Below are positions 4,384 through 26,921 of a stretch of 64,000 nt of DNA, piece after piece; position 1 is the stretch's first letter; each line of letters starts with the position of its first letter. A program made the translations under genes and the position numbers. Source of the DNA: Phoronis australis (lineage: Eukaryota; Animalia; Phoronida); assembly GCA_002633005.1 (NCBI GenBank), contig NMRA01000828.1:66450-130449 (forward strand). Direction: 5' to 3'. The notes under the pieces are model-generated. The model worked only from the letters and a program-made list of their open reading frames with translations. It was not told the origin of the DNA and searched no databases.

Positions 4384-5082
4384 AAATTTCGGCTCCATGT
4401 TGAATTGTCGAACGAGGCTCTGATGGTCGTATGTCATTTTGAACACACCGATTCTCAGAATACAATACCAAAGCACGTTCATGAATCGCTGAGTAAATGT
4501 CATGTTTTGACCGACTGGGTTCAAAATTGAAACCATGTATGACGGATGGTAAGGCAGCTCGCGAGTTTCCATTCTTCTGAAGAAATCGTGCGGCATGAAT
4601 TCTACGGCTGGTACATCACCTAATATTCTTTGTATCCCGTACTTACAAAATAAAATTGCATTGTAGTAAACCAGCTCAAAGTTTTCTGCCTTGAGCCTTG
4701 AATGAGTCTTTGTTGAGTTGAGGAACGACTCGCAACTGGCAAGAGGCATTTTCATTACGTTGGCTGCGGTTGTCAACTCATGGTCCATGATATCCCGAAG
4801 AGAGAACGTGTGCAGTAAGTCCTGTGGTAGTTTGGTGGATCTAGGATAAGTTATTAACGTCACGCCAGCTTTTCTAAGGAATGCAGGTGGTTGGTATCCG
4901 TTGTCAGCAAGAACGTAAACATCGTGGCCGTGTTCTGCAATCATTGCAAGGATTTTTTCGTCATTCCTCAATGCGGAATTTCGAGCAAAGGTGAGAGGAC
5001 ATCCTAAAATCTTTGCCGCCGCAGATTTTGCCGTGTTGTTTAGCAACACAAAGACAACGACAATTAAAAACCGACAACTCAT
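4384..5082 (-). CDS. UGT: UDP-glycosyltransferase gene A, exon 1 (signal peptide + acceptor-binding domain); joined product 512 aa
   Basis: ATG at 5082 (MSCRFLIVVVFVLL signal), AKIL..., GHDVYVL, PSY and MTFTQRFMN motifs. Phase-0 donor AAATTT|GTAAGT at 4384. Confidence 0.9.
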
Positions 5083-7331
5083 CACAAGCAGTAAAAACCG
5101 TGAAAGTTGATCTACAATGAAGACGTTAACAATCTGATCCGCAATGAATTCACTGAGCAGGCCGTCCGGTCTCGGTGTGCGACGATAAAAATAGCACTTA
5201 GACGACACTGACTTGTCACACAGGGTGTATCAAAACTGTCAGAATTGACGTGCTCGTCTGGCCTCGATGTGATTGAGTTTTGGCAAAGGAGATTTTTATG
5301 TCTGATTTTTATATCTTTTCTAATCTGTTGAGGTCCTCAGTCTGTCTTTCGAAGTGTAGGCTATGTTCGCACCCGAATGTATACATCTTGTACGTATATT
5401 TGCTATGCACGTAAGCGCAAATACACACGGGATGAAAGTTATACACTTGGGGGTACATTGCACTCGCCTACATTGTAATGTAATTGTCCGGGGTGGGGGG
5501 CGTGCCCCCTAAAATTTTGCGGGCGTCTACCGGGTTAAACCTTGGCAGCCGGCATAGCGTGTTACAGGGGACACTTGAGAAAAGAAAGACTGCGAATAGG
5601 GATAAGAGAGAAAGTTCTAGAGAAATAACAACTCAGTATCAATTAATGGTTTTGTCTCGGCTGGCCAGGACATTGTTGTTAAGGTATCCGTTTTTGCAGA
5701 ATACATGTAGGTCATCTAAATGCACTTGAAAACGTGAGTTTTATTATCCATTCATGTATTTCGAAATCAGAAAATTCGAAAAGCGATTTTTAAATTCAAT
5801 AAGACAATTTTACAAACGAAAAACTGTATTTTTGCAGAGGCCCTTCTCTAGCAAGGGAAAATGGAGACAATTGTCGCCGTATTTTCGTTTTTTTTTCTCT
5901 CTAACTGAATTGTATAGCACTTGAGAAAATTTGAAGGCCTGAGAGATAACATCAATTTCTGCACATTTCCTGATTTTTTAAAATATAGATCTTAGGGGCC
6001 AGCCCTTGAAGGTGGCCATTGGTGACATTCACGTGGTCACCTTTTTCGTGTTTTTATCAACAATTTCTTAAGCGGCAGCTCACGAAGAGGGGGCCCAATG
6101 CTTGAATCGATTACCTCTATTTTCCTTTTTTCTGAAATCGTACAACCAGCTTTCATGTTGAGAAGGATCACTTCTTGCGATGGAATGAACTGTCACTCTT
6201 TTTCAAGCATAATGCTGTTTATCTTTATCCTTTCTTCTTAGGTGTCCCATTTCAGGCGGGACTCTCTCTAGGGGCTGTTCGCGTGAATTGTCCCTTTGTC
6301 CATCTATACAATCATGTAAATATGATTCTGCCAAATATTCACGAGGGGAACTTGATATTCCAAATTCGTCAAAAACACAAAACATTTGTGTACAGCACAA
6401 CTGTATCAAGACATTCCACCCAAACAACCACAACATGTGAAAATAGAATATGATTGACCGCTATCGAAAAGGTGGACCGTTATTTGTGAATTACACAAAA
6501 AGACTATTTCCGATGGTTAGTTATAAAATAACGTTACTTTTTCCCATATTATCACAAGAATAGTATTTCTTTTGAAGATCGTTACTAGAAGTTGTTTGTA
6601 AGGAATTCGCAACTATCAAAAAGACTGAGGGCTACTATTTGTGATGATCCTGTACATGTCGAACGGGGGTACTCAAAGTACTCCCAATAATAAACAAATA
6701 TTCAGCGGGTTTTTTGAGTTCAGTTTTAATTCGTGAACCGTTATAAGCACCTCTGAAATGAGCAAAAATACACCTTAATAAGATTGCCTCATCTCCCATG
6801 TTCCCCCGGTTGCCCGTCAAAAATCTCTGCGCATGCCTGCGGAAATTGCTTATAACAACCATTCCGTTTTGATAAACAAATACATGTTTATTTTATGTAT
6901 CTATGAAAATCGACAGATTCGGAGATGAGTTTTGGAAATTAGAAGCTAAATTACGTCTTTTAAGAAATGGTAACGTTTCAGGGAATTTAGTTACAACCTG
7001 GTTAAGCGTGTTTGGCGGTACGTTAACCGTACGTATTTCCTCATGAATGTGAGTCCGTAACCGTGTATTTTGGATGAAAGGATCGTGTTTTGTGAGTCCG
7101 ATCCTGTATATGTGAGTCAGTGAACGGTGTTTGCAGGTACATGAATCGTGCTTTTGCGTCCGTGACCGTGTTTAAGACTCCGTGAACCATGTAGTTTAGG
7201 TACCTTGTACAGGAAGTATATTTTGGTAGCAGCCCTTCGTTGACACGAACTTGGTTGAAGCACACACACTGTGTTATAAGGCATTTTACTAGTTGTTAGA
7301 AAAGCCAATTTATTTAAGTTGTGGATCTTAA

Positions 7332-8140
7332 AGGAGAATGCCACCCAAAAAACAACCTATTTTGTATCAATCTAGATCGATTAGTTCTACTCGATAACGG
7401 CACGTTCGGTTGCGTTACCCGCCACCTGACGGCAGACGGAGGTGTTGAAATTATCCAGTGACGTCATTGGTTTCACACGCAGTCTGTTCAGCAGTTCACA
7501 ACACGGGTTACTGGTGTCAGCTTACCGATTGAATTCATCGTTTAACACCAACACATAATCAAATTTCGACGTAATACCCATAAAAAACTGAGTTCTTATA
7601 AAAACGTGTTGTTTTATTTCGCTGCTACGGATTTATTGGTATTTGAACACACCGTAACCTACAAAGTTCGGCAGGCCAATTTACCAAGGTCCATAGCAGG
7701 AGTTTGGGTCTGTTCGGAGATAAATTCGAAGTATTCTTCCGTGAAATACAGACAGGAGAACCCAGAACTGTGTTGTTTAGACTTATGATTTTTTGAGTTC
7801 TAAATACACAAAATGCTCGTTATCCCGACCCCCCCTAAATCCGCCTCTGTACCTTTTATTCTTCACTACCGCGAGCCACTTCCTAAGCATTTCGGGCTCT
7901 CGGGGAAGTAAAAAAAACGATATACCCGCTTTCTTCTCAGCTTCATTGTTGGAACGATGCACAGCGATATAGCGGCATTCACTCTGCGGACGAACCACTG
8001 ACGTCGCTGCGACGTTTCTCACCTTCCTCACAGGTTAACGCGACACCTCTCGGCAAGGTGAGGTCGACCGTATAAGAGGCGATGTGGATATAGACCGATT
8101 AAGACGGTAAAAAAGCAATTAAATGGGATGGCATTCTCCT
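7332..8140. mobile_element. Kolobok-like non-autonomous DNA transposon with a degenerate THAP-domain remnant (7783-8031, minus strand)
   Basis: TTAA|AGGAGAATGCCA...TGGCATTCTCCT|TTAA: terminal inverted repeats flanked by TTAA. Internal peptide GISFFLLPREPEMLRKWL resembles the THAP 'FP.....W' motif. Confidence 0.75.
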
Positions 8141-9074
8141 TTAACTCTGACCGTAAAAAGGCAGGTATTGAAAATGTGTATATTATGTTCTATTTATTTT
8201 GAAAACATAATGTCATGTTTAAATGGCATCATTAAAGAATACGTTTTAACGCATTTGGTTTGGATTAAAGTTAATTTTGTATTATTTTAACGAAAACCTA
8301 GTCGAGAAAAGTGCCTTTTATTTCGATCAGTGTGGCCAGAATTAAATTGTTTTTGCCTAAACAACATCTAAAATTAAAATTTGAATGCACAAATTACTAC
8401 ATGGACAAACGAACACAATAGGAAGAAGAACTGGCTCAACATTATTGTTTTCCTCAATCACTCCAACTTCATCATTGGTAATTTACATCAGCACGTTCCC
8501 TAAGTAATAACTTTTGCCTCACAATTCCAGATGTATCTCACTTATTGTGAACATGATTATGCAAAGCCGAAGCGTAAAATTTCCAGGACATAAGTTTTCT
8601 ATTCAAAACTTTCATTCTTCACTTGCTTAGTTTAAACATCAAAACAATCAAGGTATTCGTAATTAAGGTAGCTTTATGATCTCTGACTAACGGTGGTGAG
8701 ATTTTGAAATAATTTTGATTCGCGCTATTTTGCTCTTTTGGTTTAAAGTGTGACCAACAGTGAAACCGCTTCAATAGGAGGAGTCTTTGTAGACAGTCTA
8801 TCCGATTCGTCATAAAACGAACTTAAGAAAGCCGAAGGCGAATCGGTTTAGGAAAAATTGGTTCCCGAAATGATACTTGTTGGTGCACCTACAAAATCTC
8901 TGCCATACTTTACACAGCGAGATTCGAATCTCGCTGTAATCACCCACAATGCCGCAATATCCGTCATGCACTTTTTTAGCTTCGTTCTCGTGCGATTCGA
9001 GTACTACATGTGTTCTTTGTTCTTATAATCTTTACAAGTTTTTCTTGGCTGCATTAGCCTTTTTTGTCCGTCCA

Positions 9075-9300
9075 ATGCCAGCGATTTATTATTGCTGTGC
9101 TGTGGGCTGCAACTCCGACAAACATAAACATCCGAGGATGCTATGCATGGTATTATTTTTTTCGCCTTCCCGACATCATTCAAAGACGAGAAAATGCAGA
9201 ACGACTCGATTAACGGTAAGCTCGGCGGATTAATTTTGAACCGAACGCCATCTCTTTTCTTGGGGATATCTTTTCAGTTCCGGTATTTTAAATGGTTAAA
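9075..9300 (+). pseudogene. Frameshifted THAP zinc-finger remnant (transposon-derived)
   Basis: MPAIYYCCAVGCNS in one frame continues as IIFFAFPTSFKDEK in another, matching the N-terminal THAP pattern. Confidence 0.6.
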
Positions 9301-9630
9301 ATCAGGAATATTTTCACGGACATACACTTCTAAGGTTTCCAACATAACTTGTGAGTGAAAATGTACCTCACGTTATAAAACTAGGCCGATGAAGACAACA
9401 AGAGCGGAGTGCTATTGCTGCGTAATAATACAGGACAGCCCTGCTAAGTGCACACAATGGTGGTTATTGGGGACAAATACAACAACAACAATAATATATA
9501 TTTTAGGTTGTATTGGGAATTTCAGGGTCGCAGCTCTACAAATGAATATTTCACATAAGGAACCAGATGGGTTCTTTAATTACAAGAGATAACACAAACA
9601 TTTACGATACCCAATATGTAATTGAGTATC

Positions 9631-9805
9631 GGATGCTAAGTGGCACAGGTTAGCATAGTACCAAATGGGTACATAATACCAAATGGGTATTGGCCGATTG
9701 CCTACCAACTGGGTCGAGCAAAACGGCAAATTCAATAACAAGTACCAAATGGGTACAACTGCCAAATGAGCAAATATCATATAATAAAGTACCAAGTGGG
9801 TACAT
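9631..9805. repeat. Cluster of short TACCAAATGGGTA units, probably the subterminal region of a non-autonomous element
   Basis: About five copies or variants of TACCAAATGGGTA/TACCAAGTGGGTA. Confidence 0.6.
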
Positions 9806-10331
9806 CAAACAGCCAACTGGGCTATAACAACCTGCAAAGCAGGTTCCGGACAAGCTGAGTGAGCAGACCAGCCGGAGTGATAAAAAGAGATATTGTAAGG
9901 AACGCGGTGTTGTGGCTCAGTATGTGCTGAGAGCTGCTACCGGGGTGGAGAGAGGCAAGCTGCAGTGATGGACGCTCGAGTACAGGTGTGGTCGCCAGCC
10001 AAGGACGTATCCTCGTGCTTGACGGTAACACGCTCCGGGCTTGGAGGAGGTACCAGCAGTGGCTGCAATAACAAAAATAACGAACAGCAGATTTTGTAGG
10101 GAGGGTGGGAAAGATAGAAATCGGTTGAATTGAGAATTTGTGGAACCCAGGGTAGGGAGGGTGGGAAAGGTATCAAATGGTCTAATTGGGAAAACTTATG
10201 AGTAAATGTACTGTTGCTTGAGGCTGGGCCAATATTTACCACACATTGGTACTTAGGAGTTAATGAAACTCATATCTAAGGTGGTAAAAAGCAAAGGAAA
10301 TAGACTCTCAAGCAGCAGGGGCACTAGAGTA

Positions 10332-10378
10332 ACAGCAGTGGCAGCAGCAGCGGCGGCAGCAGCAGCAGCAGCAGCAGT
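10332..10378. repeat. (CAG)n microsatellite
   Basis: Imperfect GCA/CAG run seen directly. Confidence 0.85.
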
Positions 10379-11111
10379 TACATATATTCAGTGCCCTGTA
10401 TGCTATCTTTCACTCTAATTCAAACTGGAGAGCGTCTGGTGACTTTCTTTAGTAGAACGTGTTGTGTGGACGGCACTTCATAGTGTACCAGTGCACTTAG
10501 GGGGCACACTCTGTTTTAGGGCAGAAAAGCACATCTTTGGACCATTGTTGGATAGGATAGGCGTCTTGAAGTAATTTGTTTTGACTCAAGACGTATAGAA
10601 CAACAAAATCCATTGTATTATTGTGATGTTGTTGCAAATTGGCATTGAATTCTCGCGTTGGCTGCCAGTCCTTTGTTTTAAGTTGAGGCCGGCGACTTTA
10701 TCAGTACAATTACGCTTCGCTAGCACAGCGCCGATTTGGAACCGCTGGGGTTTTGTGTTCGATTCTGTCTTGGAGCAAATCTTAAAAACAAACTTTCTCG
10801 ACTGTGTACTCAGTGTTCACTGATTCTTACATTAATAACTGAATAAGCGAACAAGTTTCAACGTATTTTTGTGTTTTCAAGTTTTGTTTCCAAGTAGATG
10901 TGTGTTTTTGTTTTGTTAGGCTACAACACTTCCGACTTGCATAGCCACAACAACAAAACACACAATGAATAGCATACTGTCAATCCATGATGACAAATTC
11001 AAATTTTATTTTTGCTGGCGCTAATGGGCTTTCGTACCAAAAACAGTTCAGTGGCCTAAAAATGAAATGGGAATTTTCACTACGAAACACGCATGATAAT
11101 TAGTGACCAGT

Positions 11112-11948
11112 TTATTCTCGTTTTTGTTTCGTACGGCTACAGCACTTCCGACATGCATAGCCACAACATTTGAACAAAACAAAACACACAATGAGTAGAA
11201 TGGAGATCAAAAATGCTAAAACATCAAGTGAATAAAACTGGTACCAAGTCAAAAATCGGCCATAAGGTTTCAGATGCGATATACCTTTATGTCGAATCAC
11301 ATAATCGACCCAGTAAAGGAACAGATCCTTGCCACTGATTGGTTGATCATTTAGATATTTAGCTAAGCGCACAGCATTTTCTTTGTACATTGGATTAGAA
11401 ATAACTTCAGTCATGGCTGACGCAAGAGAGTCTGACGTCATAGATTGGAATTCCACATGAACACCGATCTTATGAGATTTCGTAAGTCTCGCGGCATTTT
11501 GCGGTTGGTCACTGAATAAAGGCAAAGCTATCACCGGTACACCAAACATTACAGTTTCATACATACTGTTCTGACCACAATGTGTAATAAACAACTTGGT
11601 TTTATGGTGAGCCAAAAGTCCCGTTTGTGGAAACCATTTGACTAACTTCGTGTTTTTTCCCAGTGTTTTAGGCGTTGGTCCTTCGTACTTCCACAGAACC
11701 TTTTGCGGCATTCGCGCGAACGCTTCGGCGATCAAGTTGCCGTTGTGTTCATCATACTCCGTTATCATTGATCCAAAACTCATAATAATTAAACCGTGAT
11801 CTCCTGAGCTCTGAACGAAGGCCTCGATGTCTGACTCCAGAGGTTTTGGCTTAGCAGCAAGAATCCCGTTTAAATGCACGACGTCCGGTAATTTTGGCGC
11901 TGGGTACTCCAGTGGAAATCCTCCGAAAACAAGTGCAAGACTTTCGGG
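11112..11948 (-). CDS. UGT: UDP-glycosyltransferase gene B, exon 2
   Basis: UGT signature WFPQTGLLAH...THCGQNSMYE...DQ, TM helix, KQKRE tail. Phase-0 acceptor TTGTTTCAG|CCCGAA. Confidence 0.95.
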   Translation of the reverse strand, partial: PESLALVFGGFPLEYPAPKLPDVVHLNGILAAKPKPLESDIEAFVQSSGDHGLIIMSFGSMITEYDEHNGNLIAEAFARMPQKVLWKYEGPTPKTLGKNTKLVKWFPQTGLLAHHKTKLFITHCGQNSMYETVMFGVPVIALPLFSDQPQNAARLTKSHKIGVHVEFQSMTSDSLASAMTEVISNPMYKENAVRLAKYLNDQPISGKDLFLYWVDYVIRHKGISHLKPYGRFLTWYQFYSLDVLAFLISILLIVCFVLFKCCGYACRKCCSRTKQKRE

Positions 11949-12454
11949 CTGAAACAATGATAAAGTTTGGGGACTATTCCAATTATTTATCTTCTTATCC
12001 ACACCGTTGTAGGAATGGTTATTTATTATCATTACTTATCAGATGGAAAAGACAGTAGTCAACTATCAAGTATGTTAGCCTACGTGATTGAATAGGATAT
12101 TTTGTGCCACGCATCGGAGCGACGTGCGAAACAATTCCATTCGTGCTGGTATAAAAATGAAAATGCCTGAGGTCATTCAAAATACCAGAAATTTATGTCA
12201 GTTTTCACAAAATATTTGGCCACCACCCGCCGAGGACAGGTCGAAATTAACTGAAACTTATATGAAGGCTATATGACCCGCTGTTTTGAGATTGGCCTAG
12301 GAGCGTTACTAAAGCTATTGCATCTTTTTTCAAAAGCTCGAAAACATTCCACAAAACATAAAGAAGAACTCTGTCAGTTGGCCTATCATACAAAACACGA
12401 ACCAATGCTTAATATACGCATGAGCCCTTTTAAAAACTCTTCAATTATACTAAC

Positions 12455-13180
12455 CTGCTTTGGTTCAATTTTGTACTTCCTTGCCAGTTGGCGGTAGTCG
12501 TAATCCATTAATTTGCTCAAAAAACAATATGAATAGGCAGTTATCATGAAATTCACAACTCGCTCCAAAAACAACATTTCTTGTCCCACGTGATATACAT
12601 TTATGGGAAGGTATGAGAATGGTAAAGGCAGTTGTCGATCTTCAAAACGTCTCATCGTGTCGAAAGCAAAATATTCTACGGAAGGGATGTCTCCGAAAAC
12701 ACCTTGAATCACTATTTTACACATAAATAGCGAGTTGTAATAGACCATGTCGAATTTCTCGCGTCTCAGTCGATCGTGAATGATGGACGAACTCGCAAAC
12801 GACTCGCATATTTTCAAAGGAATATCGAGCATAGCCAACACAGATTTCATTGCACTCGTTGTCATATTGCGAAGTGGAAACCTGTGCTCGTTGACTGGTA
12901 GGCCCTTCGGTCTTGGTACTACAATCAATTTTATGCCGGCTTCGGTGATAAATTGTGGCGGTTCATAACCGCTGTCGGCTAGAATGAAAACTTCATGACC
13001 TTGCTTCGCCAGAATTGCTAAGAGCTTCTCGTCATTTCGCAGACTTGAGCTCTTAATAGCTGTCAATGGACATCCTAAGATCTTCGATGCTTCCCCCTCA
13101 TAGCTGGTCACGTGGAATAAAAAGAGTAAGAAGCCAAGGAACCATTGTGGACTTGTCTTAGTGTGACCTGACCTCCCCAT
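12455..13180 (-). CDS. UGT: UDP-glycosyltransferase gene B, exon 1; joined product 520 aa
   Basis: ATG at 13180, signal peptide, SKILGCP, GHEVFIL, MLFLERVVN. Phase-0 donor AAGCAG|GTTAGT. Intron is 506 bp. Confidence 0.92.
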
Positions 13181-14065
13181 GGTTTTATGACGTATGCAAG
13201 TGATCCAGCATTAGGCAGAAATAAGCCATCTCTTATACATGTTATACACACACACAATCTATAGCTGCACTCTATTCCTTTGTGTACACTGTACTCCCGT
13301 GACCAAAGTACACGGTGGATGTCCCACAATAAACGGGTCACTTTGTCACAGCATATGAAAGGCCAACCCGAGAATCGACGTCAGTGCTCAGGTGCTTAGG
13401 ATTTATGCAAGCATGTCCGCGACTAATGTCATCTTCTGATAAACTTGCCAGGTAACCTCAACGTTGAGGAGACGCCACCATGATCAACTGTGGGCTTTAG
13501 AAGATACGCTAGATTCATTAACACCATCGAATCTTCAGTCACAAAGGCCATCTTTGAATGAGTAAAACCCACTTCAACATTTTTGGTTTTGCAAAATCTT
13601 CAAATGCAAGGCCCATTCGTGTTTTTAAAATTTGGTTTTGAGATTCTTCCCGCGAACTCAGAGCTTTTGTCATTTCTTGACAGTAGGGAAATGGAGCAGA
13701 GCACTAAAGTAGAATTTTTGTTAGCGTGTCAATGAATCATTTCACACTGGAAGTGTTTTGCATCATCCAGAGGCTTCTTACTCAACTTGAATTGCGTAAC
13801 TGCGCGCTATCAGAAATCGGAGTAGTTTACTTATGATAATAAGGGGACCAGACAGGACAAACCCGAAAACTGAAAAACGCCGTCATGAGAATATGTTTGT
13901 TTTCAAGAAATTATTGACAGCATTACAGACCAATCATGAAGTAATGTTAGCAAAATTTCGGGTAATTCAACAAAAACTTAGTTTACAGCGAGAATTAAAT
14001 TTGAGAAGGTATCCCAGTGCACACCTTTAGGATGTGAAGTTCAGTTCAAAAACAAACGCATGAAG

Positions 14066-14269
14066 AGGCGGATCTACGGGGGGGGGGGGTTCATGGGGTT
14101 CAACCCGCCCCCTCGGGACAGGATAAAAATATGAATTAAAAAAATGTCGTCAGGAAAACAATATCGGCTACAAAATAACCAAAAAAATCTTACACGTGAG
14201 GGGGGAAATCCCCTCCCGACCTTCGCGTGAATCCTAAACCCCCTTACTGAAAACGTAGATCTGCCACTG
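14066..14269. mobile_element. MITE of the CAGTGGCGGATCTAC...GTAGATCYGCCACTG family
   Basis: GGCGGATCTAC-G-run left end and GTAGATCTGCCACTG right end. Homologous to copies at 24536-24708 and 57953/60220. Confidence 0.75.
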
Positions 14270-16313
14270 GACGAGCTAGTACGGCTAGAAATCAACATAC
14301 ATGCAATATTCCAGGCGCAACTAGAATCGTATATGTTTAAATTATAAAGCTGATATGAAATCACCTTTTAATATGCTAAAACTGAATTTATAAGTTCACA
14401 ATACCGGCTTATTCTAAGTAAATAGACAGAACACGAGCACAAGTCACTATATTGTCAGGAGTACATAATCAACTGTCGCTTTTGAAAAACTGAATGAGCA
14501 TATTTATTGAAATTATAATTTCCAGATGATTGGTAAACGTTGATTTTTCCCATTTACTTACTTGTGAAAAATCGCATCGTTTGTGTTTGATATATCATAA
14601 TATTCTGGCATTTCTTCATGAAAATCTTGCATTTAGCAAGAAATAAACCCCGTCTTTAACCCAGTACACAAAATACACTGTCTTCTTATTGAATCTACCA
14701 ACCTCAGCTCTAAATTGCGTGCCAAGAATCCTGGAACAGTGATTATACAGTTACGTCATAAGCTGTGTATGTTGTCGGAAAGGCGCCTCTGGCGCTGAAT
14801 ACTGGTACTACTTTTTAAAAATACTCGTTCCGCTTCGTGTTAAAAAAAAATCATAGAACGGATTTTAATGTAAAATAGTTCAGTCGAAACTTAACCCCAG
14901 ATAATATTCATCCAACACAACCAATGTTCGAAAAACACGCTGACCCGGTTTCCCGGAGCCAGTGGATTTGCCGCCGGGCCAGTAACTTTCAAAAGAGCAT
15001 GGCACCCGGGCTTGTTAATCTTCAGACTAACTTGAGCGGTTGGCCAGCACATTTATTTGCTGAAGTTGAAACACTGAACACAACACCAAATAGTCTCTAA
15101 CTTAACTGAAATGAATATTAATTTTTAGTTTAATTTTTATTTTTGGTCACTGTAGTGAGTGACAGCTTGGTCATGTATTATGGGTACTCACTCAATTGTC
15201 GCCATAGCAACTGTCGCCATAGGTAATGAGGTTTCTGTAGAAACCCCGCCCTCTTTTAAAAAAATTCAATGAAATAAGGCAAACACAAAAACAGGACTGA
15301 AAGTTACGCAACGTTTATATTTTAGTGATGTCTTTCGACTGTGTTCTAAATTGGTGAACGTAAAATAGAGATTATCTTTAAAGTTTTGTTGTATTTCAGA
15401 AATTCATTGAGCACAAAATCCCTAAGCACTATTGACTATTTTTGTAATTTAGGACGTCATCACCTCAGCAAAATTCGAAATTACTTTCTTTACTTTTTGC
15501 TCTAAAGTGAGCAATTCTTGTTTTATCCCGTGGATCTCTATTATGAACCATTTCTACAATAGTCAACATACACTGTTGTTCACTATACAGCCAAGACTGT
15601 AGTTCACTTAGGTAAAACTAGGAACAAGCCAAAAAGGTAGGAACATTTGGCACTTGTCGTTGAAGCCTTTAGGAACCTCTTGCTGAAAGAAAAGACGTGC
15701 TAGCAGTTTGGTGCTACATTTTTTAACCGCCGACTGCACACAGTTACAGTGTATTGTGCAATCCTGTTAATCTGTTTAGAAGCAAGTTTTCTCTAATCGT
15801 GTTTTGAGATATTTTAGTTTTGTCCACCACGACTAACCATGTACTATCTTCATGACACTTTCTTAAAATATTTACCCGCACACGCACGCGCGCTGACGCG
15901 TGTGCATGTAGTAATCATTTACACAGTAACAGGTAGCTAACATGTTATTTCTGCGGAGTGTAAATACTGTAACCCCACTTTATGTCACGAATTCGTCATT
16001 ACGCTTGTCTTTACGTCCAAACTACAATGGTTTTGCATGTTGGAACACGTGCGCTTTCACATTAGCGTTGCTAAAATTGATGGTAAAATGAAGCATTGTG
16101 TCCCCCAAACAACAATGCACAACATTCATTCTTGCAGAGCCACCAAAGTGAGCAAGTAGTGAATAAAACCAGTGTTCCGTCAATTTTTTTGATTTAGATC
16201 ACCTACCAATGTAAAATTGGTTTCAATTTTTCAATTTGTTCCTCACTCATATTGGAAGAAATTCCTGGGTTTGCAAAGAGACAAGTTGTTATGCCTTTAT
16301 TCCATGATCGGCG

Positions 16314-16398
16314 CATGAAACGACACCTCGTGACAAACCAACCCATGAAACGACCTCGTGACAAACCAACGCATGAAACATCTCGTGACAAACCAACT
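16314..16398. repeat. Short tandem repeat, about 28-bp unit x3 (CATGAAACGACCTCGTGACAAACCAAC)
   Basis: Seen directly. Confidence 0.8.
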
Positions 16399-17382
16399 GG
16401 TACATTACGGTCTCAAGCAAAGGCGAGGTTCTTCCGAAGCCTTGAAATCATCTCGAATATAGCTGAGGAACAATCTGAGACCAGTTAGGTGGTAATTCAA
16501 TTTTCTTCTAATGAAAGGCGGTTTCTTGTGTGGTTTTAGTTGTAAAATTTACAATAAAGCTACAATTCGCCAGTTTAAATTTGGATGATCGTGGTAATGT
16601 TCTTTTAGTCCAAAAACACTTTGGTTAGAAATTCAACACTGACAGGTAAACAGTGACGAAAGGTCCTTTTAAAGAATGTTGTGGAAATCGCATGTCAGTC
16701 TATCAGCGAAAGTTCAAAGGAACATTATTGGCTAGAGATCAGCTTAGGTGCGGAAACGACGTTGAACCCCAGCCGTCGCAGCCGAACACTTTACTTCTGG
16801 CGGGGTTAAATCCCATTCCACTCTATTGACAGCAGATAATTTCACTGGTAAGTGAAAGCCTGGTACGAGATAACGATGAGAATTGGCGTATTGTAATTAA
16901 ATCACAAGCTACAACGGATTTTCTTGTCAATGCTAACCAACAAGTGCAACAGTGTGATTACTGATATAACGTGCCTGTATTTTGAGAACCAGTTTGATGC
17001 CCGTTATTCAGAGGAAAAACTGGTTCTCAAAACTCGGGCACGTTGCACCAGGCCATTACCTCCAACAAGTCTACCTCAGCTAACAATAAGCCCAAAATGC
17101 ATATTCGGCAGTAAAACCGATGATGTTCCTTGATGTATAAGTTGCATATGACAATAATTTGTTCCGGTTTCTTTTCTATTGTCTATTTGTATTGAGCATC
17201 TTCGACAGTCAATCCGTAATTACAATTTGATAATCCCCAATAGCATATTGTCAATCCATGATGACAGATTCAAATTTTATTTTTGCTGGCGCTAATGGGC
17301 TTTCGTACCAAAAACAGTTCAGTGGCCTAAAAATGAAATGGGAATTTTCACTACGAAACACGCATGACAACTAGTGACTAGT

Positions 17383-18219
17383 TTATTCTCGTTTTTGTTT
17401 CGTACGGCTACAGCACTTCCGACATGCATAGCCACAACATTTGAACAAAACAAAACACACAATGAGTAGAATGGAGATCAAAAATGCTAAAACGTCAAGT
17501 GAATAAAACTGGTACCATGTCAAAAATCGGCCATAAGGTTTCAGATGCGATATACCTTTATGCCGAATCACATAATCGACCCAGTAAAGGAACAGATCCT
17601 TGCCACTGATTGGTTGATCATTTAGATATTTAGCTAAGCGCACAGCATTTTCTTTGTACATTGGATTAGAAATAACTTCAGTCATGGCTGACGCTAGAGA
17701 ATCTGACGTCATAGTTCGCAAGTTTACCTCAACACCGATCTTGTGAGATTTCGTGAGTCTTGCGGAATTTTGTGGTTGGTCACCAAATAAAGGCATAGCT
17801 ATCACCGGTACACCAAACATTACTGTTTCATACATACTGTTCTGACCACAGTGTGTAATAAACAACTTGATTTTAGGGTGTGCCAAAAGTCCCGTTTGTG
17901 GAAACCATTTGACTAACTTGGTGTTCTTTCCCAGGGTTTTTGGCGTTGGTCCTTCGTACTTCCACAGAACCTTTTGTGGCATTCGTGCGAAAGCTTCGGC
18001 GATCAAGTTGCCGTTGTGTTCATCATACTCCGTTATCATTGATCCAAAACTCATAATTATTAAACCGTGATCTCCTGAACTCTGAACGAAGGCTTCGATG
18101 TCTGACTCCAGAGGTTTTGGCTGAGCAGCGAGAATCCCGTTTAAATACACGACGTCTGGTAAATATGGCGCTGGGTACTCCAGTGGAAATCCTCCGAAGA
18201 CAACTGCAAGACTTTCGGG
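17383..18219 (-). CDS. UGT: UDP-glycosyltransferase unit C, exon 2 (candidate shared/constant exon)
   Basis: Same length (837 nt) as gene B exon 2 and near-identical to it. Phase-0 acceptor GATTTCAG|CCCGAA at 18220/18219. Confidence 0.95.
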   Translation of the reverse strand, partial: PESLAVVFGGFPLEYPAPYLPDVVYLNGILAAQPKPLESDIEAFVQSSGDHGLIIMSFGSMITEYDEHNGNLIAEAFARMPQKVLWKYEGPTPKTLGKNTKLVKWFPQTGLLAHPKIKLFITHCGQNSMYETVMFGVPVIAMPLFGDQPQNSARLTKSHKIGVEVNLRTMTSDSLASAMTEVISNPMYKENAVRLAKYLNDQPISGKDLFLYWVDYVIRHKGISHLKPYGRFLTWYQFYSLDVLAFLISILLIVCFVLFKCCGYACRKCCSRTKQKRE

Positions 18220-21200
18220 CTGAAATCATAAGAACACAATGTATGTTTGACAGTAGTTCATGATCGCCTTTCACCAATTTCAATCCCACAAGGGAAACAT
18301 TTTTGCCCTTTTTTGAACGTAGTTGATCCGAAGAGATCCGAGATCCATTTCAGGAAATTGACTAAAGATTCAAGACAAAATTTTGGTCTAGCGCTCTCGC
18401 TTCACTATTCCCGGAAAAAGTTTGCCAAGTAATTATGAGCATCACTGTCTAGAACTAATTTATAAAAGTTATCTCAGAAACTAGCTATTACGTGGACATT
18501 CTCAGAAACATTTGAGATTTACATGTAATCATATTCCAGAAATGTTGTGTGGAGCGCAAGACCAAATTTCAACTTGTTTTAAATGTCACTTTTCATGAAA
18601 CAGATTGCAGAACAGCAAATTTTGTCTTATTTATCATAGTGTTGGATTGAGTTAAAAGGAAACAAAAATAGTCTAAAAACAGATAATCAAAGAAAATACG
18701 TCATTGGGTTGAAGCTAGAGCAAGCAAATGTTAAAACAATAGAAGCCGCGGCCTGTAATGAGTATCAACAATCAAACACCAGGAGTGTAGCATCGCAGGC
18801 CCAGTTACGGAGATTGCTATGATTCGGCGGTATTCTCCAACATGGCTGGTATAAACTGATCATTCTTTCTCCATGGAGAATGTCACTATTCTAGATAGGG
18901 AAGAAAACTGATTCAGGCGAGCAATATATGAAAGCGTGGAGAATCCCACTTTAAACAGACAAGGGCGCCTGAGATTTCTGTTACCAAGAACTTGGGATAG
19001 GGCCCTAAAGAGTATCCTGCACAAACTGTGCTATCGTTCACATGATCGAGTCACGTGACACCTCAGTGGCCTGCCGAAGGGCTCGAGATGAGCACGCAAC
19101 GCTTACCCAATCCGCAATTCCAGTAATTGATTTATTTTTTCATGTAAGGCTTTTTGTTCTCATAAAATGGGCAGAGTCTCCCCTTCCTTACCATGATAGG
19201 ATTCCATTTCCACAAACAATAACATGGAAACTATCAGCAACTCAAGAAGTTTACTGGGATTGGCTAACCCTAAAATTGCTAATTCATTCGAGAACACCGC
19301 GAGGACACATGGCTTGCGTCTTTTGTTGCCGGCTCAATCGGCAGCAATTCAATGCTTTAAAACCTCAGAGCGTTTCAGATAAAAACACAACATTCACTGC
19401 TAAAAAGTAGTGAAAAGCAGCTTTAACTAAACAAGCACAGGAACGTCATCAAATCGTGTTACTCATTAGATGTGAGTCACCAGATGGCAAGACCGCGTCT
19501 ACTCCACTAGTCAGCCCACCCCAAGAAATGCCAAACAACGTAAGTTGATGTAAAAGATGAAGTCGTAAGCCTACTTTTTTCGTCTGAAAATTCATCATGT
19601 GGTAACATGTGGCTCTATAATCTTACCAGATCCAAGTAAGATAATACACTAGTGTTGTCAGAACAGTTATCGAGTCAATTTGAAAGGATGCTCTGGAGCA
19701 CCTTTCCTACTAAACCTAAGCCTGGTGAAGAGTCGTTCAGGGTCGGGGCCCACTGGCAATTCGAGGCTAAGGCTTTGGTTATCACTACCACAGTCTACGA
19801 CCGTCAGAGGAGAGCGCAGATTTGCAGATCTTCACTGAAATACTCAGAAAAGACGTCGCGATGTTTAAAAAATTATCCCTTCAATGAGAAAACGAGTATT
19901 CATTAACAGGCAAACCCTTAGGTTTTAAACCCAACATCATTTTAATGCCGGCGTTAGTGGGTAAAGTTGGCAGTCCGTCATTTACCATCATTGCCACAAA
20001 ACAACTTGACGTTGTTACGCAGAACGTTCTTCACAGCAGAGGCAGCTGACGGGGCAATGGCCTCTTGCTCATTGCAAAAGGAAGCCCATCTTAGGTCGAG
20101 CAGCTTATAGATTGTGTCTGACTGCAACTTGAAGCTATGCCCATGGAAAAGAAAGAATAACAAGCAGTGGAGTGTGCTTCGTGCCATTATGGTAATTTCA
20201 GTCGTAGAACTTCGTCAAGGCGCCGGAGTAAACCGAGCAGTGCCAGATTCAGGTTTCTCGGTGCCCTTCAGCTATTATTAGTCTGGGGACCCAGTTATTG
20301 TTCACTGCCCTTGTCGCCATAATTTTCACCCCGTCCGTCAACAAATTTTAGACCAACATCCTGCTCGCAACTTTTTTTACCGCCGGTCTCCGGATCAACA
20401 GTATTTTGAAATTACCCCATCCCTTGGGTACCACAATTTTCAACCCTCCATTCGGCACAATTCATACCTACGTTTCGCGGTCAATGCAACCCTCGAAATG
20501 CGCCCCTCCCCGGGGGCCCCTAGCCTAGGTTATCCGGCACTGAATTTCACCTAAAACTGAGAACTGTCTTATGTTGTGGCAGTTGATCGCGCAAGTCCAG
20601 TCGCTCGCCAAGCAATTTTAAATAAAAATTCTCAAACTCTCAAGTTGCACGACTTCTTTCAACAGAAAACAAAATGATTGTCGTCAGATGACGCATCATA
20701 AAGGTTAGGTGCATCGCTGCATCTTCCTCTTCTTGAATCGACTTACATCGCAGGACACAACCTAAGAATATTATGAAGCCTGCCATCTGGCGACAGCTTC
20801 ACGAGAGTTCGTCATTGATGTTTCACTCTAGCTAGTTCCGACTCGATCACCGCATCGTTTTCGGGAACTCTGATTTATTTATCTCTCAAGACTACCTGGA
20901 ATACGCCCAGTAAAGTTTTACAGAAATGTAAAAAGCAAGGCCAAAAGAAAACAAAAATTGCACAAGGGTCAGTTTTTCGGAAACGGATATCTGCATCTGG
21001 AAACAGTTGGAGTCGTATGCAGTGGAATTATACATGGAAAAGCAAAAAGTGGAAGGTTGAAAAAAGTTAAGGGTCATAACTTCCTTTTTTATCCTTGGTT
21101 GTACGGAATGGGCTCGAGCACAGCTTAGCAACACGTAAACCAAAGCAGTTCATTCGCAAGAACTCTGACACAACTGGAATTGAATGGGAAACGTACAGTA

Positions 21201-21606
21201 TAACATATATGTGGCACTTGCTACAATCTAAGACTTCCATCATACGGTGTCACATACCTTGTGGCCAAAGATGCCCGTTTCCGCCCATCCCAGCCCGTTC
21301 TATAATAATATTTGGACGTGCTTGGACGTTTGTGGGACACACTGGCAGACTCATTAACAGAGCCCAGAAAGTCAATGCGGGTGAGACAGCTCTAGGGCAT
21401 TATCTTAACGTTCCAACCAGAAGGAGCAACACCGATACCTGCTTCCCCACAATTATGACCTGACAGTTTTGATATTTCACTTAAGACAGAAACAACGGAA
21501 AATCCAACAAACGTAGCTCCAACAAATTATACTGACTTATCGAGTCAGCGTTTAGGTAGACACAAGGACCTGTTCCACCAAGCCAGATATTAAGTGGGAC
21601 GCTACA

Positions 21607-21677
21607 CTCGCTGGTTCCCTGCGTGCTTAGCCCAGCCAGCTACCGCCCCATCTAGCGGCACGCAGGGAACCAGCGAG
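21607..21677. mobile_element. 71-bp mini-MITE with a 10-bp target-site duplication
   Basis: CTCGCTGGTTCCCTGCGTGC...GCACGCAGGGAACCAGCGAG is a 20-bp perfect inverted repeat, flanked on both sides by GGACGCTACA. Confidence 0.8.
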
Positions 21678-21704
21678 GGACGCTACACTACATGTATAAC
21701 TGAC

Positions 21705-22372
21705 CTCTTTCGGCTCAATTCCGTACTTCCTCGCCAGTTGGTAGTGGTCGTATTCCAATTTAAACATAAAAGCATACAGCAACGAAACCATCACAAAGTT
21801 CACAGTTCGCTCCAGAAAAGACATACCCTGCCCTGCGTTGTATGTATTGGCGGGAACGTATGAGGGTAATAGAGGGAGCTGACGATCTGCCAATCGTCTG
21901 GTGGAGTAGTGAACAAAATATTCCATGGAAGGGATGTTTCCCAAAACACCCTGGATTACTAATTTACAAAAATACAAGGAATTGTAATAGACCAGGTCGA
22001 ATTTCGTTCGCCTCAGTCTGTCATGAATGTCAGTAGAGTTCGCAAAAGACTGGCAAATCTTCTTAGAAGTATCCAACATCGCCATCAGACCCTGCAGTGG
22101 ATTACTTGTCAAATTCCAGAGAGGATACCTGCCGGCGTTGGACGACAGGCCTTCCGGTCTCGGGACTATAATCAGTTTTATGCCGGCTGCGGTGACGAAT
22201 TTTGGTGGCTCGTAACCACTGTCGACCAGAATGTAAACTTCGTGACCATGCTCAGCCATCATGGTCAAAAATTTCTCGTCGTTTCGCAGAGCTGAGTTCT
22301 TAACCGCCGTCAGTGGACACCCGAGGATCTTAGCTGACTCTCCCCTGTGGTTGCAGGCGTCGAATACAAACA
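21705..22372 (-). CDS. UGT: UGT unit C, first exon variant C1 (open frame; 5' end cut by the assembly N at 22373)
   Basis: AKILGCPLTAVKNS...GHEVYIL...MSFLERTVN. Phase-0 donor AAAGAG|GTCAGT at 21705. Confidence 0.85.
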
Positions 22373-22373
22373 N

Positions 22374-22494
22374 AACTTGTTCCAAAATACTTAAGTTTTC
22401 GCCAAAAACTTAAGTTTTCGGGAATGAAAACTTAAGTTTTTCAGACCAAAAACTTAAGTTTTTCGATGAAAACTTAAGTTCATTTTTGTAAGGG
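22374..22494. mobile_element. End of a non-autonomous DNA transposon (CMC/EnSpm-like terminus) with palindromic AAAACTTAAGTTTT subterminal repeats, inserted in a UGT exon
   Basis: Five ACTTAAGT palindromes ending in CATTTTTGTAAGGG (reverse complement CCCTTACAAAAATG), directly abutting exon sequence. Confidence 0.65.
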
Positions 22495-22976
22495 ATGGAA
22501 GGGATGTTTCCCAAAACACCCTGGATTACTAATTTACAAAAATATAAGGAATTGTAATAGACCAGGTCGAATTTCATTCGCTTCAGTCTGTCATGAATGT
22601 TAGTAGAGTTCGCAAAAGACTGGCAAATCTTCTTAGAAGTATCCAACATCGCCATCAGACCCTGCAGAGGATTACTTGTCAAATTCCAGAGAGGATACCT
22701 GCCGGCGTTGGACGACAGGCCTTCCGGTCTCGGGACTATAATCAGTTTGATGCCGGCTGCGGTGACGAATTTTGGTGGCTCGTAACCACTGTCGACCAGA
22801 ATGTAAACTTCGTGACCATGCTCAGCCATCATGGTCAAAAATTTCTCGTCGTTTCGCAGAGCTGAGTTCTTAATCGCCGTCAGTGGACACCCGAGGATCT
22901 TAGCTGACTCTCCCCTGTGGTTGCAGGCGTCGAATACAAACAGTAGCCACACTGGCAGTTCCGTTAAGCAACGCAT
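22495..22976 (-). pseudogene. UGT: Second copy (probably the other allele) of UGT exon C1, 5' part, interrupted by a transposon
   Basis: ATG at 22976 (MRCLTELPVWLLFVF). Near-identical to about 21925-22372, with about 7 substitutions counted by eye. The frame runs into the repeat after GNIPS. Confidence 0.8.
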
Positions 22977-23329
22977 CTTAAATCCGCGATGGTACGTTGA
23001 CCCAGTCACAATATAATGTGTACGGCAGACAACTAGCTGTAATTTGCACCGTGAAAACAGCCAGTATACGCACATATGTAGGTCAAACAGATTCGCTTGG
23101 AAAAACTCGTATTTCATCGAAAAAAACTAAATTTAGATTTAGATCACTGGTCCTCGGCCATTCCTTCCTCAAATTAGAAGTGTCTTTGTGTCATGTAAGA
23201 AGTGAGAGTTTCTTTAATTTTTCCTCCAAACCATGCTCAGCGAATAAAATAAATTGCCGTGTTAATTTGTTCATTTCGCAAAAACTCTGCGAGGCAAGTG
23301 GGCGTCAGCGAAGTGTTTGAACTATCGCT

Positions 23330-23550
23330 GGCCAAAATTTGGGCGAACGTTGCGCACCCGTTAAATTACTTGCGTAAATTAACTTTAATAAATAAATAAT
23401 TAATTTACACCGTAAAGAATTAATTTGCATCGTAAAGAATTAATTTACAACGTTAAAAGTAAATTTACACCTTGCAAAATAATCAATTTACGTCGCGAAT
23501 AATTAATTCACGCCGTTAATTATCGTTGGCCATATGGGTGAACGTTAGTG
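23330..23550. repeat. AATTAATTTAC-rich repeat element; related copy at about 44790-45060
   Basis: Repeated TAATTTACA/C units bounded by GGCCA..TGGGYGAACGTT motifs at both loci. Confidence 0.55.
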
Positions 23551-24347
23551 TACAAAATATCGAGAAATAAGGACCCAAAGAAACGTCCCTTAGGAGTAAC
23601 AGCCTTTCGGAGTAAGTTGAGAAGTCCTTCAGAGTAAAGACCTAGACCCCTGAAGTGGCGGCACCGGGTTTTCTCACTACATACAGTTGGCACTTGGCAC
23701 TCCTGAGTTAAAGTGGACTCACTACTGGTAGAAAACAAATTTGAGGTGTGGTGACAGTTTTGAGGTATGCATTTTGAATATGCTGTGGGTCGGAAAAGTC
23801 TGCTAGTTCACCAGAAGACTTCAGTTTTAAAAAATGGCAGCTTCCTATAGTAGTATTCCATCACGCATAGTGGACAGTGACAGCCTTCGCTGCGAGTTCA
23901 GGTTAACCCTCAAACAACACAGAACAGCACAAATGTGATTGGATCAAAACTTTTGGACCACATTAATTGTGGAATATATAGTAAATTTACACTCGGGATC
24001 TAGTGTTCGCTCGTGTGGTAGTTGGGCTGAAAGTGTGTCCCCATTGCTGCCGCTTTGGATTATGACGAGTTGATTAAGACTCTTCGCCATGCATTACATC
24101 TATTTTACCAGCTGCGAACAGTGTTACACTATAATTCTTCTCACGAGCTAAAATGAGTTGTTAATGAGGACTATGTGTTTCGACGGAAAGGAGACGAACT
24201 TCTGAAACCTAGTAAACTGTGGCCTATGTTAGCTGTGACGCCTGGTATCATTGGAGGGTCACTAAAATCTCAATATACTCATATATACTGTACATGTAGG
24301 TCTGTCCCTGAAAAACCGCAATCAACAAGTGGATCCTTTGCACTAAC

Positions 24348-25030
24348 CCGTTTTGGTTCAACGCCGTGTTTTCTCGCCAACTGGTGGTTGTCCCCAATGC
24401 ACCTTATTCCAAATACACATATAAACGAGGTCATCAAGAAATTCATGCTCCGCTCCAAAAATGACATTTGATAACTATTCATGGAGAGGTACGAGAACGG
24501 GAGAGGTAGCTGTCGATCTTCCAAGCTTCTGAGCGCAAAGGCGGATCTACAGGGGGGCGGGGGGTATTCAAGGAGTTCAACCCCCCCTCAGGACAGGATC
24601 AAAAATAAAAATTGAAAAAAAAAACACAAAAACCTTCCTTCCGCTCGGCGCGTCGGATTCGTTCGAATCCTAACCCCCCTTACTGAAAATGTAGATCTGC
24701 CGGCACTGGAGCGTGTCCCTAGGAAAAAAAACTCCACTGAAGCGACGTCACTCAAGACAACTGAAAAAATAAATGTCGACCACAGACATTATTGTAGTAA
24801 AAGCATTGTCTGTTATATTACGAAGTGGAAACCTTGTTCGTTTGCTGGTAGTCCCTTCGGTCTGGGAGTAACGCTCAGTTTAATCCCGCCTTTTGTGACG
24901 AATTTTGGAGGTTCATAACTGCTGTCGGCTAGAACGATAACATCGTGACCTTGAACCGTTATCATTGCCAACTTATCGAATGTTTCGGTGGAAATCGTGC
25001 AGTCACCGTCAGTCATAGCCAAGATGTCGC
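24348..25030 (-). pseudogene. UGT: Degenerate UGT first exon (C2), a paralog of exon C3
   Basis: Fragments GHDVIVLADSSYEPPKFVTK and DRQLPLPFSYL...MSFLERSMN...HGVEPKR, with deletions, frameshifts and a MITE insertion. The downstream intron start is nearly identical to that of C3. Confidence 0.9.
24536..24708. mobile_element. MITE (CAGTGGCGGATC family) inserted in the UGT pseudo-exon, 5-bp TSD GAGCG
   Basis: GAGCG|CAAAGGCGGATCTAC...GTAGATCTGCCGGCACTG|GAGCG. The uninterrupted paralog has a single GAACG at this site. Confidence 0.8.
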
Positions 25031-25656
25031 AAGAAGCCACATTGAGTTATGCAGCCTTTCTGTGTCAAGGTTTTGTCCTTTGGTTTATTACGCAAAATTA
25101 ATATTTCCCAAGAAAAAAAAAACAAGTCAGTAGCCGCCCCCAAACCTGCATTAGCTCCTATCCCACTGAGGGACTGGCTCTGTATAACTGAAGAGCTGAC
25201 GACAGCTGAAGGTCATCCCATCTGGTTGGAAAAACGAATTAGGCCTACTCCTCTCGGGAAGCATTTTACTCGCAAAAACGTACAGAGTTTTCATTATTTC
25301 ACCTCGGTGACGGAAATCCATGCGTTTATAGTTGGAAAAATACCTCCGTAAAATACAACATTGGGAATTTAGTTAAATAAGTATTTACGATGACTGATTC
25401 ATTGGGACCTATTCTGAACTTTCATTGGATAGCCTCTGTTATAAAAATTTTCAGGGCGAGAGATGGTTTGCAACCCCTGTGACAGAATGAAGTTCACGTT
25501 ATTTGAAATGTTATTTTAAGTTCTTGCATTTTTTAGAAAACTCATAAAAGGCGTTGTTTTTTCTAGACTATCACAAGTTTGTGACACACAGCAATTTGAT
25601 CATAGCGTGCAGTTTTCTAATCTAATTCATTTTCAGTCGAAAAAGAGCAATACTGT

Positions 25657-26056
25657 TGCTGTGCGTAAACTTGGAATCCTGGTTAATCTCAAGATCGCGT
25701 ATGCGTGAACTTGGAATTGAATCCTCATTAATTTTGAGAATTTTTTGTTCAGCGTAAAGAACTTTTGTAATTATTGGCCTCATTATCACCCATCTTCTCC
25801 TTTAGCGTAACTTGAGTCAAAGAATATCAGAAAATGTTTGTTTAATCAATTATTGTTTGCGGTGGATAAGATCGCCCACAATTGAAAAAGGATTGGATAA
25901 AATTTACGTTATTTTGTCAACATATTATTCGATTTAGTGCAATGCAAATTTTTATCAAGGTGAACGTGATTATTTGAGTGAAGTTGTCGTGTATTCCAAG
26001 TTCACGCATACGCGATCTTGAGATTAAGCAATATTCCAAGTTCACGCACAGCACTG
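25657..26056. mobile_element. MITE with roughly 60-bp terminal inverted repeats; another end of this family at about 45083-45150
   Basis: TGCTGTGCGTAAACTTGGAATCCTGGTTAATCTCAAGATCGCGTATGCGTGAACTTGGAAT and its inverse at about 25994-26053. Confidence 0.75.
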
Positions 26057-26207
26057 TCACCTCGGAGGGGTACAGCGACAAACCAATACTGATGCGAAGC
26101 GTCACCTAGTGAGCATGAATAACAATAACTTCAATGTACCCATGAAAATGAAGAACCCGGTCTGTCCCTGAAAAACCGCAATCAACAAGTGGATCTTTTG
26201 CACTAAC

Positions 26208-26921
26208 CTGTTTTGGTTCAATCCCGTGTTTTCTCGCCAACTGGCGGTGGTCATAATGCATCTTATTCCAAACACCATACATAAAAGAAGTCATCAAGAA
26301 ATTCACAGTTCGCTCCAAAAATGACATTTCCTGTCCTACATGATAAAGATTGATGGGGAGGTATGAGAACGGGAGAGGTAGCTGCCGATCTTGCAAGCGT
26401 CTGAACGTATCAAAAGGAAAATATTCCACTGAAGGGACGTCTCCAACAACAGCCTGGATCACTATTTTACACACAAATGCTGCGTTGTAGTAGATCATGT
26501 CAAATTTCTCACGCCTCAGTCTATCATGAACCTCTGACGAATTCGCAAACGCTTCGCATATCTTTAAAGGAATGTCAACCACAGACATCATAGTTTGAAA
26601 TCCATTGTCCGTCATATTACGAAGTGGAAACCTGTGCTCGTTTGCTGGTAGTCCCTTCGGTCTGGGAGTAACGATCAGTTTAATCCCGGCTTTTGTGACT
26701 AATTTTGGAGGTTCATAACCGCTGTCGGCTAGAATGAAAACATCGTGACCTTGACCCGCCATCATTGCCAACATCTTCTCGTCATTTCGCAGCGCCGAGT
26801 TCTTAATCGCCGTTAAAGGACATCCCAAGATCTTTGCTGCTTCCACATCAAAACTGGTTGCATACCACACAAAGAGTAACAAGCCAATTGTACCCCGGAG
26901 ACACGTGGTTGAAACAGCCAT
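26208..26921 (-). CDS. UGT: UGT unit C, intact first exon variant C3 (238 codons; no private exon 2)
   Basis: ATG at 26921 (MAVSTTCLRGTIGLLLFVW signal), AAKILGCP, GHDVFIL, MSFLERTVN. Phase-0 donor AAACAG|GTTAGT at 26208. Confidence 0.9.

Follow-up and report, generated by a model that had tools for sequence, protein, structure and literature searches.

Can a UDP-glycosyltransferase (UGT) work once both residues of its catalytic pair are gone? UGTs are a well-known detoxification family in which the His-Asp pair is held to be the defining catalytic device in animals and plants alike, and the natural exceptions known to us lose only the His. The question is raised by a 64,000-nucleotide stretch of DNA from the phoronid Phoronis australis (contig NMRA01000828.1, positions 66,450 to 130,449), hereafter the window. 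Stop-to-stop open reading frames (ORFs) and splice-site reading revealed that the window holds three two-exon UGT genes, A, B and C, with every coding part on the minus strand. We found that all five first-exon copies at this locus (A and B, and C1, C2 and C3 of gene C) have lost both the His and the Asp, and we tentatively favor the view that the encoded enzymes transfer sugar without the relay.

The catalytic His position was identified by counting 16 residues back from the His of the GH(E/D)V motif. An earlier note, made from the sequence alone, had read Ala (A, C1 and C3) or Ser (B) at this position and Asn at the partner Asp of these same four copies; codons, alignments and models agree with both readings, and C2 also carries Ala and Asn. 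At the Asp position, every one of the five copies has Asn (FELVYYN, FDMVYYN, FDLVYYN twice and FDMIYYN), encoded by AAT or AAC. MAFFT alignments with 60 library N-domains and with 42 full-length UGTs, vertebrate UGT1A1 and UGT2 orthologues among the latter, gave the same register, and no His was found at the catalytic position in this comparison with UGT1A/2B and invertebrate UGTs. Ungapped BLASTP against a His-bearing relative (P0011) placed NSA opposite NSH and YYN opposite IYD. Additionally, HHalign against a vertebrate UGT1/2 profile (probability 98.9) set S/A opposite the H of GSHW and N opposite the D of FTDP, and it put a three-residue insertion, relative to vertebrates, earlier in the loop between strand 1 and helix 1.

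The structural models revealed the same correspondence. In the AlphaFold model of the C3 N-exon, a strand (residues 30-34) and a loop (35-41) precede a helix (42-56) that starts at S42-A43, and strand 4 (142-146) ends at N146. Helix 1 of a bird UGT1A1 control model begins at S29-H30 and D142 lies directly after strand 4, at sites equivalent to those of C3. A shifted register that hides a canonical His-Asp pair might be suspected from the high divergence of the N-domain, whose Pfam E-values are just 1e-7 to 1e-10 and for which a PDB sequence search with the B N-exon returned 0 matches at E<=10, and from a strand 1-helix 1 loop three residues longer than that of vertebrates. However, in every copy the segment from strand 1 to the GH motif is free of His, relatives of equal loop length have NSH at precisely the place of the window's NSA or SSS, and four alignment methods and two models concur, so that we regard such an artefact as highly improbable. 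The loss of the dyad at sequence- and model-equivalent positions is confirmed by the two MAFFT alignments, BLASTP, HHalign and both AlphaFold models.

The C-terminal exons matched the Pfam UDPGT profile (PF00201) with E-values of 2e-93 (A), 1e-100 (B) and 2e-103 (C), and the N-exons A, B, C1 and C3 scored 31-41 bits (E 1e-7 to 1e-10; A 5e-8), the gathering cut-off being 19.5 bits; C2 gave no match in this search. The PROSITE-type UGT signature, quoted in PMC7781194 as [FVA]-[LIVMF]-[TS]-[HQ]-[SGAC]-G-x2-[STG]-x2-[DE]-x6-P-...-[DE]-Q, was found by regular expression in 3/3 C-terminal exons with every signature donor-contact position kept, in line with the earlier statement that the UDP-sugar signature ending in DQ is preserved. 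A type I topology in the endoplasmic reticulum (ER) could be read from the sequence, with hydrophobic signal-like N-termini, a C-terminal hydrophobic anchor and KTKKE or KQKRE (KxKxx) tails.

The C3 model (predicted local distance difference test, pLDDT, 88.5; predicted template modelling score, pTM, 0.83) showed a GT-B N-terminal Rossmann-like acceptor domain. Its nearest structures were N-domains of glycosyltransferase family 1 (GT1), namely spider-mite Tetur04g02350 (7lvy, Z 12.4), plant UGTs (Z 10-12) and OleD (2iyf_B, Z 10.0), and Foldseek E-values went down to 3e-5. The C3 model shares the N-terminal Rossmann-type fold with these solved structures, whereas sequence identity is only 6-14% among the matches listed. 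A word-indexed homologue search among longer proteins with the B N-exon as query gave no match, and a search of the ESM Atlas returned generic UGT clusters only. By profile, signature, fold and topology, the window proteins belong to the UGT/GT1 family (CAZy GT1), but they fail both catalytic-residue features.

To place this loss among related proteins, we queried 1.84 billion representative proteins with a profile built from the five N-exons; this gave 139 matches at E<=1e-3 and 11 at E<=1e-10. The nearest N-domains came from brachiopod, annelid, cnidarian, hemichordate and priapulid species. Residues were counted over the 60 N-domains, belonging to 58 proteins, that span this region. In the His column, 35 had H, 21 had R, and Q, N, L and T occurred once each; the Asp column contained D in 43, E in 11, N in three, H in two and Q in one. 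Both dyad residues were missing in only one of the 60, the first half of a tandem cockroach model. For the C-terminal exon, no match exceeded 48% identity, and most matches were vertebrate UGT1/2. The earlier note had spoken of a whole UGT clade; this was too broad, as we found only five first-exon copies of three genes at a single locus and no closer relative in the library.

The 21 domains with Arg at the His position share the motif NSRL(L/M)NMEK, and their Asp position is still acidic (Asp in 20, Glu in one). Arg-bearing proteins include P0005, P0013, P0014, P0029, P0034, P0040, P0049, P0052 and P0053, and those that carry a name are UGTs of the brachiopod Lingula anatina and the annelid Owenia fusiformis. 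These NSR-type UGTs (for example XP_013412569.1 and CAH1784403.1) are the nearest detectable N-domains (E 3e-14 and weaker) and share with the window copies a long strand 1-helix 1 loop, the helix start NS-x-L-x-N-x-EK and the lack of a catalytic His, but they retain the acid where the window copies have Asn. In the N-domain tree, the four window exons formed a fully supported clade on a long stem of 1.45 changes per site; this clade lay outside a separate group of 20 Arg-type domains, although the deep branches were weakly supported. The position outside the Arg group indicates that the His was lost independently in the window clade. With subscription journals lying outside its coverage, a literature search found no description of a dyad-less invertebrate UGT clade, of an Arg-for-His UGT group or of variable first exons in invertebrate UGTs.

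The same relatives throw light on the LRNDEK motif, which the earlier note had described as unusual and invariant. It is indeed invariant in 5/5 copies, but it is not an isolated invention: brachiopod, annelid and other relatives carry NS[H/R]L(L/M)NMEK, for example NSHLLNMEK, where the window has NSALRNDEK. Each of N46, E48 and K49 is also present in 48-60% of the other 42 UGT N-domains, including domains that retain the His. R45 was found in 10% of them and D47 in none; Leu, Met or Ile is usual at 45 and Met or Leu at 47. NSALRNDEK thus derives from the wider motif, with N, E and K ancestral and only R45 and D47 specific to the clade.

RNA supports the gene models. Three raw-read runs carrying the same species label (X2, X3 and X4) were aligned to the window, and the predicted junctions of A, B, C1 and C3 were seen exactly, all of them GT..AG on the minus strand (CT..AC on the plus strand). 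For gene A, X2 additionally contained four loose ends reading the exon 1 terminus. Joints from both C1 and C3 to position 18219 show that gene C splices alternative first exons onto one shared donor-domain exon (29 and 40 reads in all), and the difference in C1/C3 usage between the runs points to regulated promoter choice. A pseudo first exon of this array, by contrast, is both broken and silent, with RNA depth at or near 0 over 23884-25506.

We also compared substitution patterns among the copies. The ratio of non-synonymous to synonymous substitution rates (dN/dS, Nei-Gojobori) was 0.18-0.29 when the N-exons of B, C1, C2 and C3 were compared, and the C-terminal exons gave 0.08-0.16. These values are rough, as most pairs have a dS close to saturation or past it. 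Among the exon polymorphisms listed from RNA, at least 35 were synonymous and at least 24 non-synonymous, 56 further RNA differences lying outside this list; C3 codon 43 varied only synonymously among those listed. Two nucleotide changes separate AGT, the Ser codon of B, from the GCN codons of Ala, which indicates that position 43 tolerates change among small residues. Across the four paralogs, 73 of 238 positions were invariant, and the densest 20-residue stretch was residues 30-49 (15 of 20), which takes in the catalytic loop together with the beginning of helix 1. Purifying selection, expression and the maximal conservation of this loop together speak against a decaying gene, although they are no proof of catalysis.

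Several invariants (G33, C34, T37, R45, D47, D66, H132, Y144, N146, K152 and Q156) are specific to the clade, being present in 4/4 paralogs here and in under 10% elsewhere. They cluster at strand ends and helix starts, and several replace hydrophobic by charged residues. Additionally, Q197 stands in place of the Asp of the (S/T)DxM(T/S)F motif, which is Asp in 33 of the approximately 40 others with a residue in that column. These sequence patterns show a catalytic loop that was remodelled, became polar and was afterwards held constant.

These observations bear on whether the proteins are pseudo-enzymes, which would transfer nothing and would serve instead to bind UDP-sugar and/or a ligand or to partner catalytically active UGTs of the ER membrane. 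The loss of both relay residues together with a third, nearly universal Asp (D197 to Q) would suit such a role, as would the inactivation of an insect UGT by a His-to-Leu change reported in PMC7781194. A binding role sits less well with the C-terminal exons, in which all signature donor contacts are kept in 3/3 under the lowest dN/dS values given above, or with the catalytic loop being the best-conserved part of the N-domain. Several paralogs and alternative first exons have moreover been kept and are differentially used, as in a substrate-diversified enzyme set, and we consider pseudo-enzymes unlikely.

Another explanation retains base catalysis but moves the base. Hydroxyl acceptors would still be deprotonated by a clade-specific residue near the old site, namely D47, D66, H132 or K152. 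Each of these is invariant in 4/4 paralogs and present in 0-5% of the 42 other UGT N-domains, and the secondary structure of the model places them at the C-terminal ends of strands or the N-terminal ends of helices. D47 lies one helical turn below position 43 and replaces Met/Leu, D66 is at the top of strand 2, and H132, in the helix before strand 4, replaces Leu/Met. The small residue kept at position 43 (Ala in four copies and Ser in B) could expose D47, and the loss of a carboxylate at 146 with the gain of one at 47 looks like a swap. On the other hand, helix geometry suggests that an i+4 residue would be more distant from the helix tip than the reach of the His side chain, by about 6 Å. 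The earlier note had offered the D or E of RNDEK as the relocated base; E48, like K49, is ancestral, which leaves D47 as the only candidate within the motif. The E and K of RNDEK were both rejected as relocated bases, as they are ancestral in His-bearing relatives. All in all, a relocated base seems possible but rather doubtful.

We tentatively prefer a third explanation, that the window genes encode active transferases without a His base, whose acceptors are nucleophilic without deprotonation (amines, carboxylates or thiolates); it is a plausible choice rather than an assured one. The acceptor domain has lost both residues of the His-Asp relay and the donor signature is intact; under this scheme, the sugar would be passed to an intrinsically nucleophilic acceptor with no need of a His base. 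The changes from hydrophobic to charged residues at R45, D47, D66 and K152, with a basic residue at 40, would point to a charged or polar nucleophile as the acceptor. With a site rebuilt and held constant, an intact donor site and genes that are expressed and diversified, working enzymes fit better than decaying ones, and from sequence the window proteins are likely to be catalytically active.

Human UGT1A4 and UGT2B10 offer the closest comparison for such enzymes, since they too are animal ER UGTs with a natural non-basic residue in place of the catalytic His. UGT1A4 has Pro at this position. The window copies differ in that His is replaced by Ala/Ser, Asp is also swapped for Asn, and helix 1 and its surroundings carry the new charges R45, D47, D66 and K152; moreover, there is no sign of orthology, and the window clade stands alone on its long stem. 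According to PMC7781194, UGT2B10 has Leu at the catalytic His and specialises in N-glucuronidation, and phenolics and primary amines are substrates for which the catalytic His is important.

Several points nevertheless weigh against transfer without the relay. UGT1A4 and UGT2B10 retain the partner Asp, whereas both residues are gone in the window copies. The model covers the isolated C3 N-domain with no donor. The dS values behind the selection estimates are near or past saturation for most pairs, and comparisons with A are saturated. No orthologues were found among the 1.84 billion representative proteins, 0 of the 139 matches reaching E<=1e-30. Finally, PMC7781194 reports that a His-to-Leu change in an insect UGT abolished or strongly cut O-glucosylation and that no N-glucosylation was gained, from which it follows that loss of the His alone does not make an N-transferase.

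The arrangement of gene C recalls vertebrate UGT1A, in which several first exons (signal peptide and acceptor domain) are likewise spliced to a shared donor-domain sequence, and the gene C array holds pseudo-exons, as does the UGT1A locus. The two differ in that UGT1A has four shared exons and gene C has one, and in that the neighbors A and B have private C-terminal exons. Identity of the shared exon to vertebrate UGT1 and to vertebrate UGT2 is in each case 45-48%, and the N-domain tree has weak deep support; the arrangement of gene C is likely to be independent in origin from vertebrate UGT1A. At its broadest, the locus could represent a lineage that dropped the relay and rebuilt its active site on D47, D66, H132 and K152, giving a different GT1 catalytic architecture for polar or charged acceptors that is deployed through an independent UGT1A-like gene, a reading we put forward with considerable doubt.

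Table 1. Exons, dyad codons and RNA-supported splice junctions of the UGT locus, in window positions (aa, amino acids; reads are given for X2, X3 and X4 in that order).
Feature	Position	Strand	Details
Gene A exon 1	4384-5082	minus	233 aa, signal peptide and acceptor N-domain; ORF, GTAAGT donor, RNA joint
Gene A exon 2	2359-3198	minus	279 aa and stop; UDP-sugar domain, membrane anchor, KTKKE tail; CAG acceptor
Gene B exon 1	12455-13180	minus	242 aa; ORF, splice sites, RNA joint
Gene B exon 2	11112-11948	minus	278 aa and stop; 95% identical to gene C shared exon
Gene C shared C-terminal exon	17383-18219	minus	278 aa and stop; joined in RNA to 21705 and 26208
First exon C1	21705-22370	minus	222 codons, without own start codon; RNA joint
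C2, 5' partial copy of C1	22497-22976	minus	Met to codon 160, then low-complexity repeats
First exon C3	26208-26921	minus	238 aa; RNA joint; AlphaFold model
Decayed pseudo first exon	24299-24972	minus	insert at 24536-24771, in-frame stops; tblastn and blastn
Short remnant of a further first exon	19806-19970	minus	tblastn E 3e-7; holds a stop
His position, A	4972-4974	minus	Ala, codon GCA
Asp position, A	4660-4662	minus	Asn
His position, B	13043-13045	minus	Ser, codon AGT
Asp position, B	12734-12736	minus	Asn
His position, C1	22290-22292	minus	Ala, codon GCT
His position, C2	22860-22862	minus	Ala, codon GCT
His position, C3	26793-26795	minus	Ala43, codon GCG
Asp position, C3	26484-26486	minus	Asn146
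Junction, gene A	3198>4384	minus	reads 0, 5, 1
Junction, gene B	11948>12455	minus	reads 2, 7, 1
Junction, C1 to shared exon	18219>21705	minus	reads 4, 0, 25
Junction, C3 to shared exon	18219>26208	minus	reads 18, 12, 10

The gene models share one plan (Table 1). A GT donor closes each first exon in phase 0 after '...EPK(F/Q/E)', and the C-terminal exons each open at 'PESLA...' behind a CAG acceptor; the two limits of the region described in the earlier note, 4384 and 26921, coincide with the donor site that ends gene A exon 1 and with the start codon of C3. The reading frames had been described as intact, which is correct for A, B and C3, but C1 is without its own start codon and C2 is broken after codon 160, beyond which it runs into AAAACTTAAGTTTT-like repeats. 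C1 and C2 are 97% identical in amino acids with a dS of 0.03, and RNA reads carry mixed C1/C2 alleles; the pair represents either a partial duplication in tandem or an assembly artefact in which two haplotypes were placed one after the other. Five single N letters occur in the window (22373, 46552, 54982, 55913 and 57989), the first of them just upstream of C1. The C-terminal exons of B and C have a dS of 0.16, whereas the first exons of these genes are 61-69% identical with a dS of about 0.9; this suggests that the constant exon was either recently duplicated or subject to gene conversion.

Some further features were observed in the window. A plus-strand RNA pile at 3056-3269, with a depth of 38 in X2, 26 in X3 and about 0 in X4 and with loose ends at 3088, overlaps the 5' end of gene A exon 2 and looks like an exon of an antisense spliced transcript. 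RNA piles on both strands with many loose ends at 14229-14269, 16961-17011 and 21607-21679 are probably transcribed interspersed repeats. A 20-residue piece of a C-terminal tail lies at 10905-10964, and the element that interrupts the pseudo first exon (24536-24771) is repeated at 14066-14271 and 60176-60216. Additionally, a minus-strand open frame of 606 codons (62178-63998) runs off the window end; it contains TNP-like RNase H N-terminal (E 3e-42), GTP-binding-insertion (2e-21) and RNase H C-terminal (2e-7) domains, which are those of P-element/THAP9-type transposases. A Pfam search of eight other long ORFs in the window gave no match.

Taken as a whole, the dyad-less UGT set is an unusual variant within a known family. 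The RNA-confirmed shared donor-domain exon of gene C extends the UGT1A-type gene design beyond vertebrates, and the Arg-for-His group of brachiopods and annelids suggests that His-independent UGTs are commoner in invertebrates than the searched literature indicates. With expressed, constrained paralogs that have neither residue and a conserved, newly charged loop, the locus is a natural experiment on whether, and by what means, GT1 enzymes can function once the relay is gone, and it bears on the acceptors that such enzymes serve in marine invertebrates.

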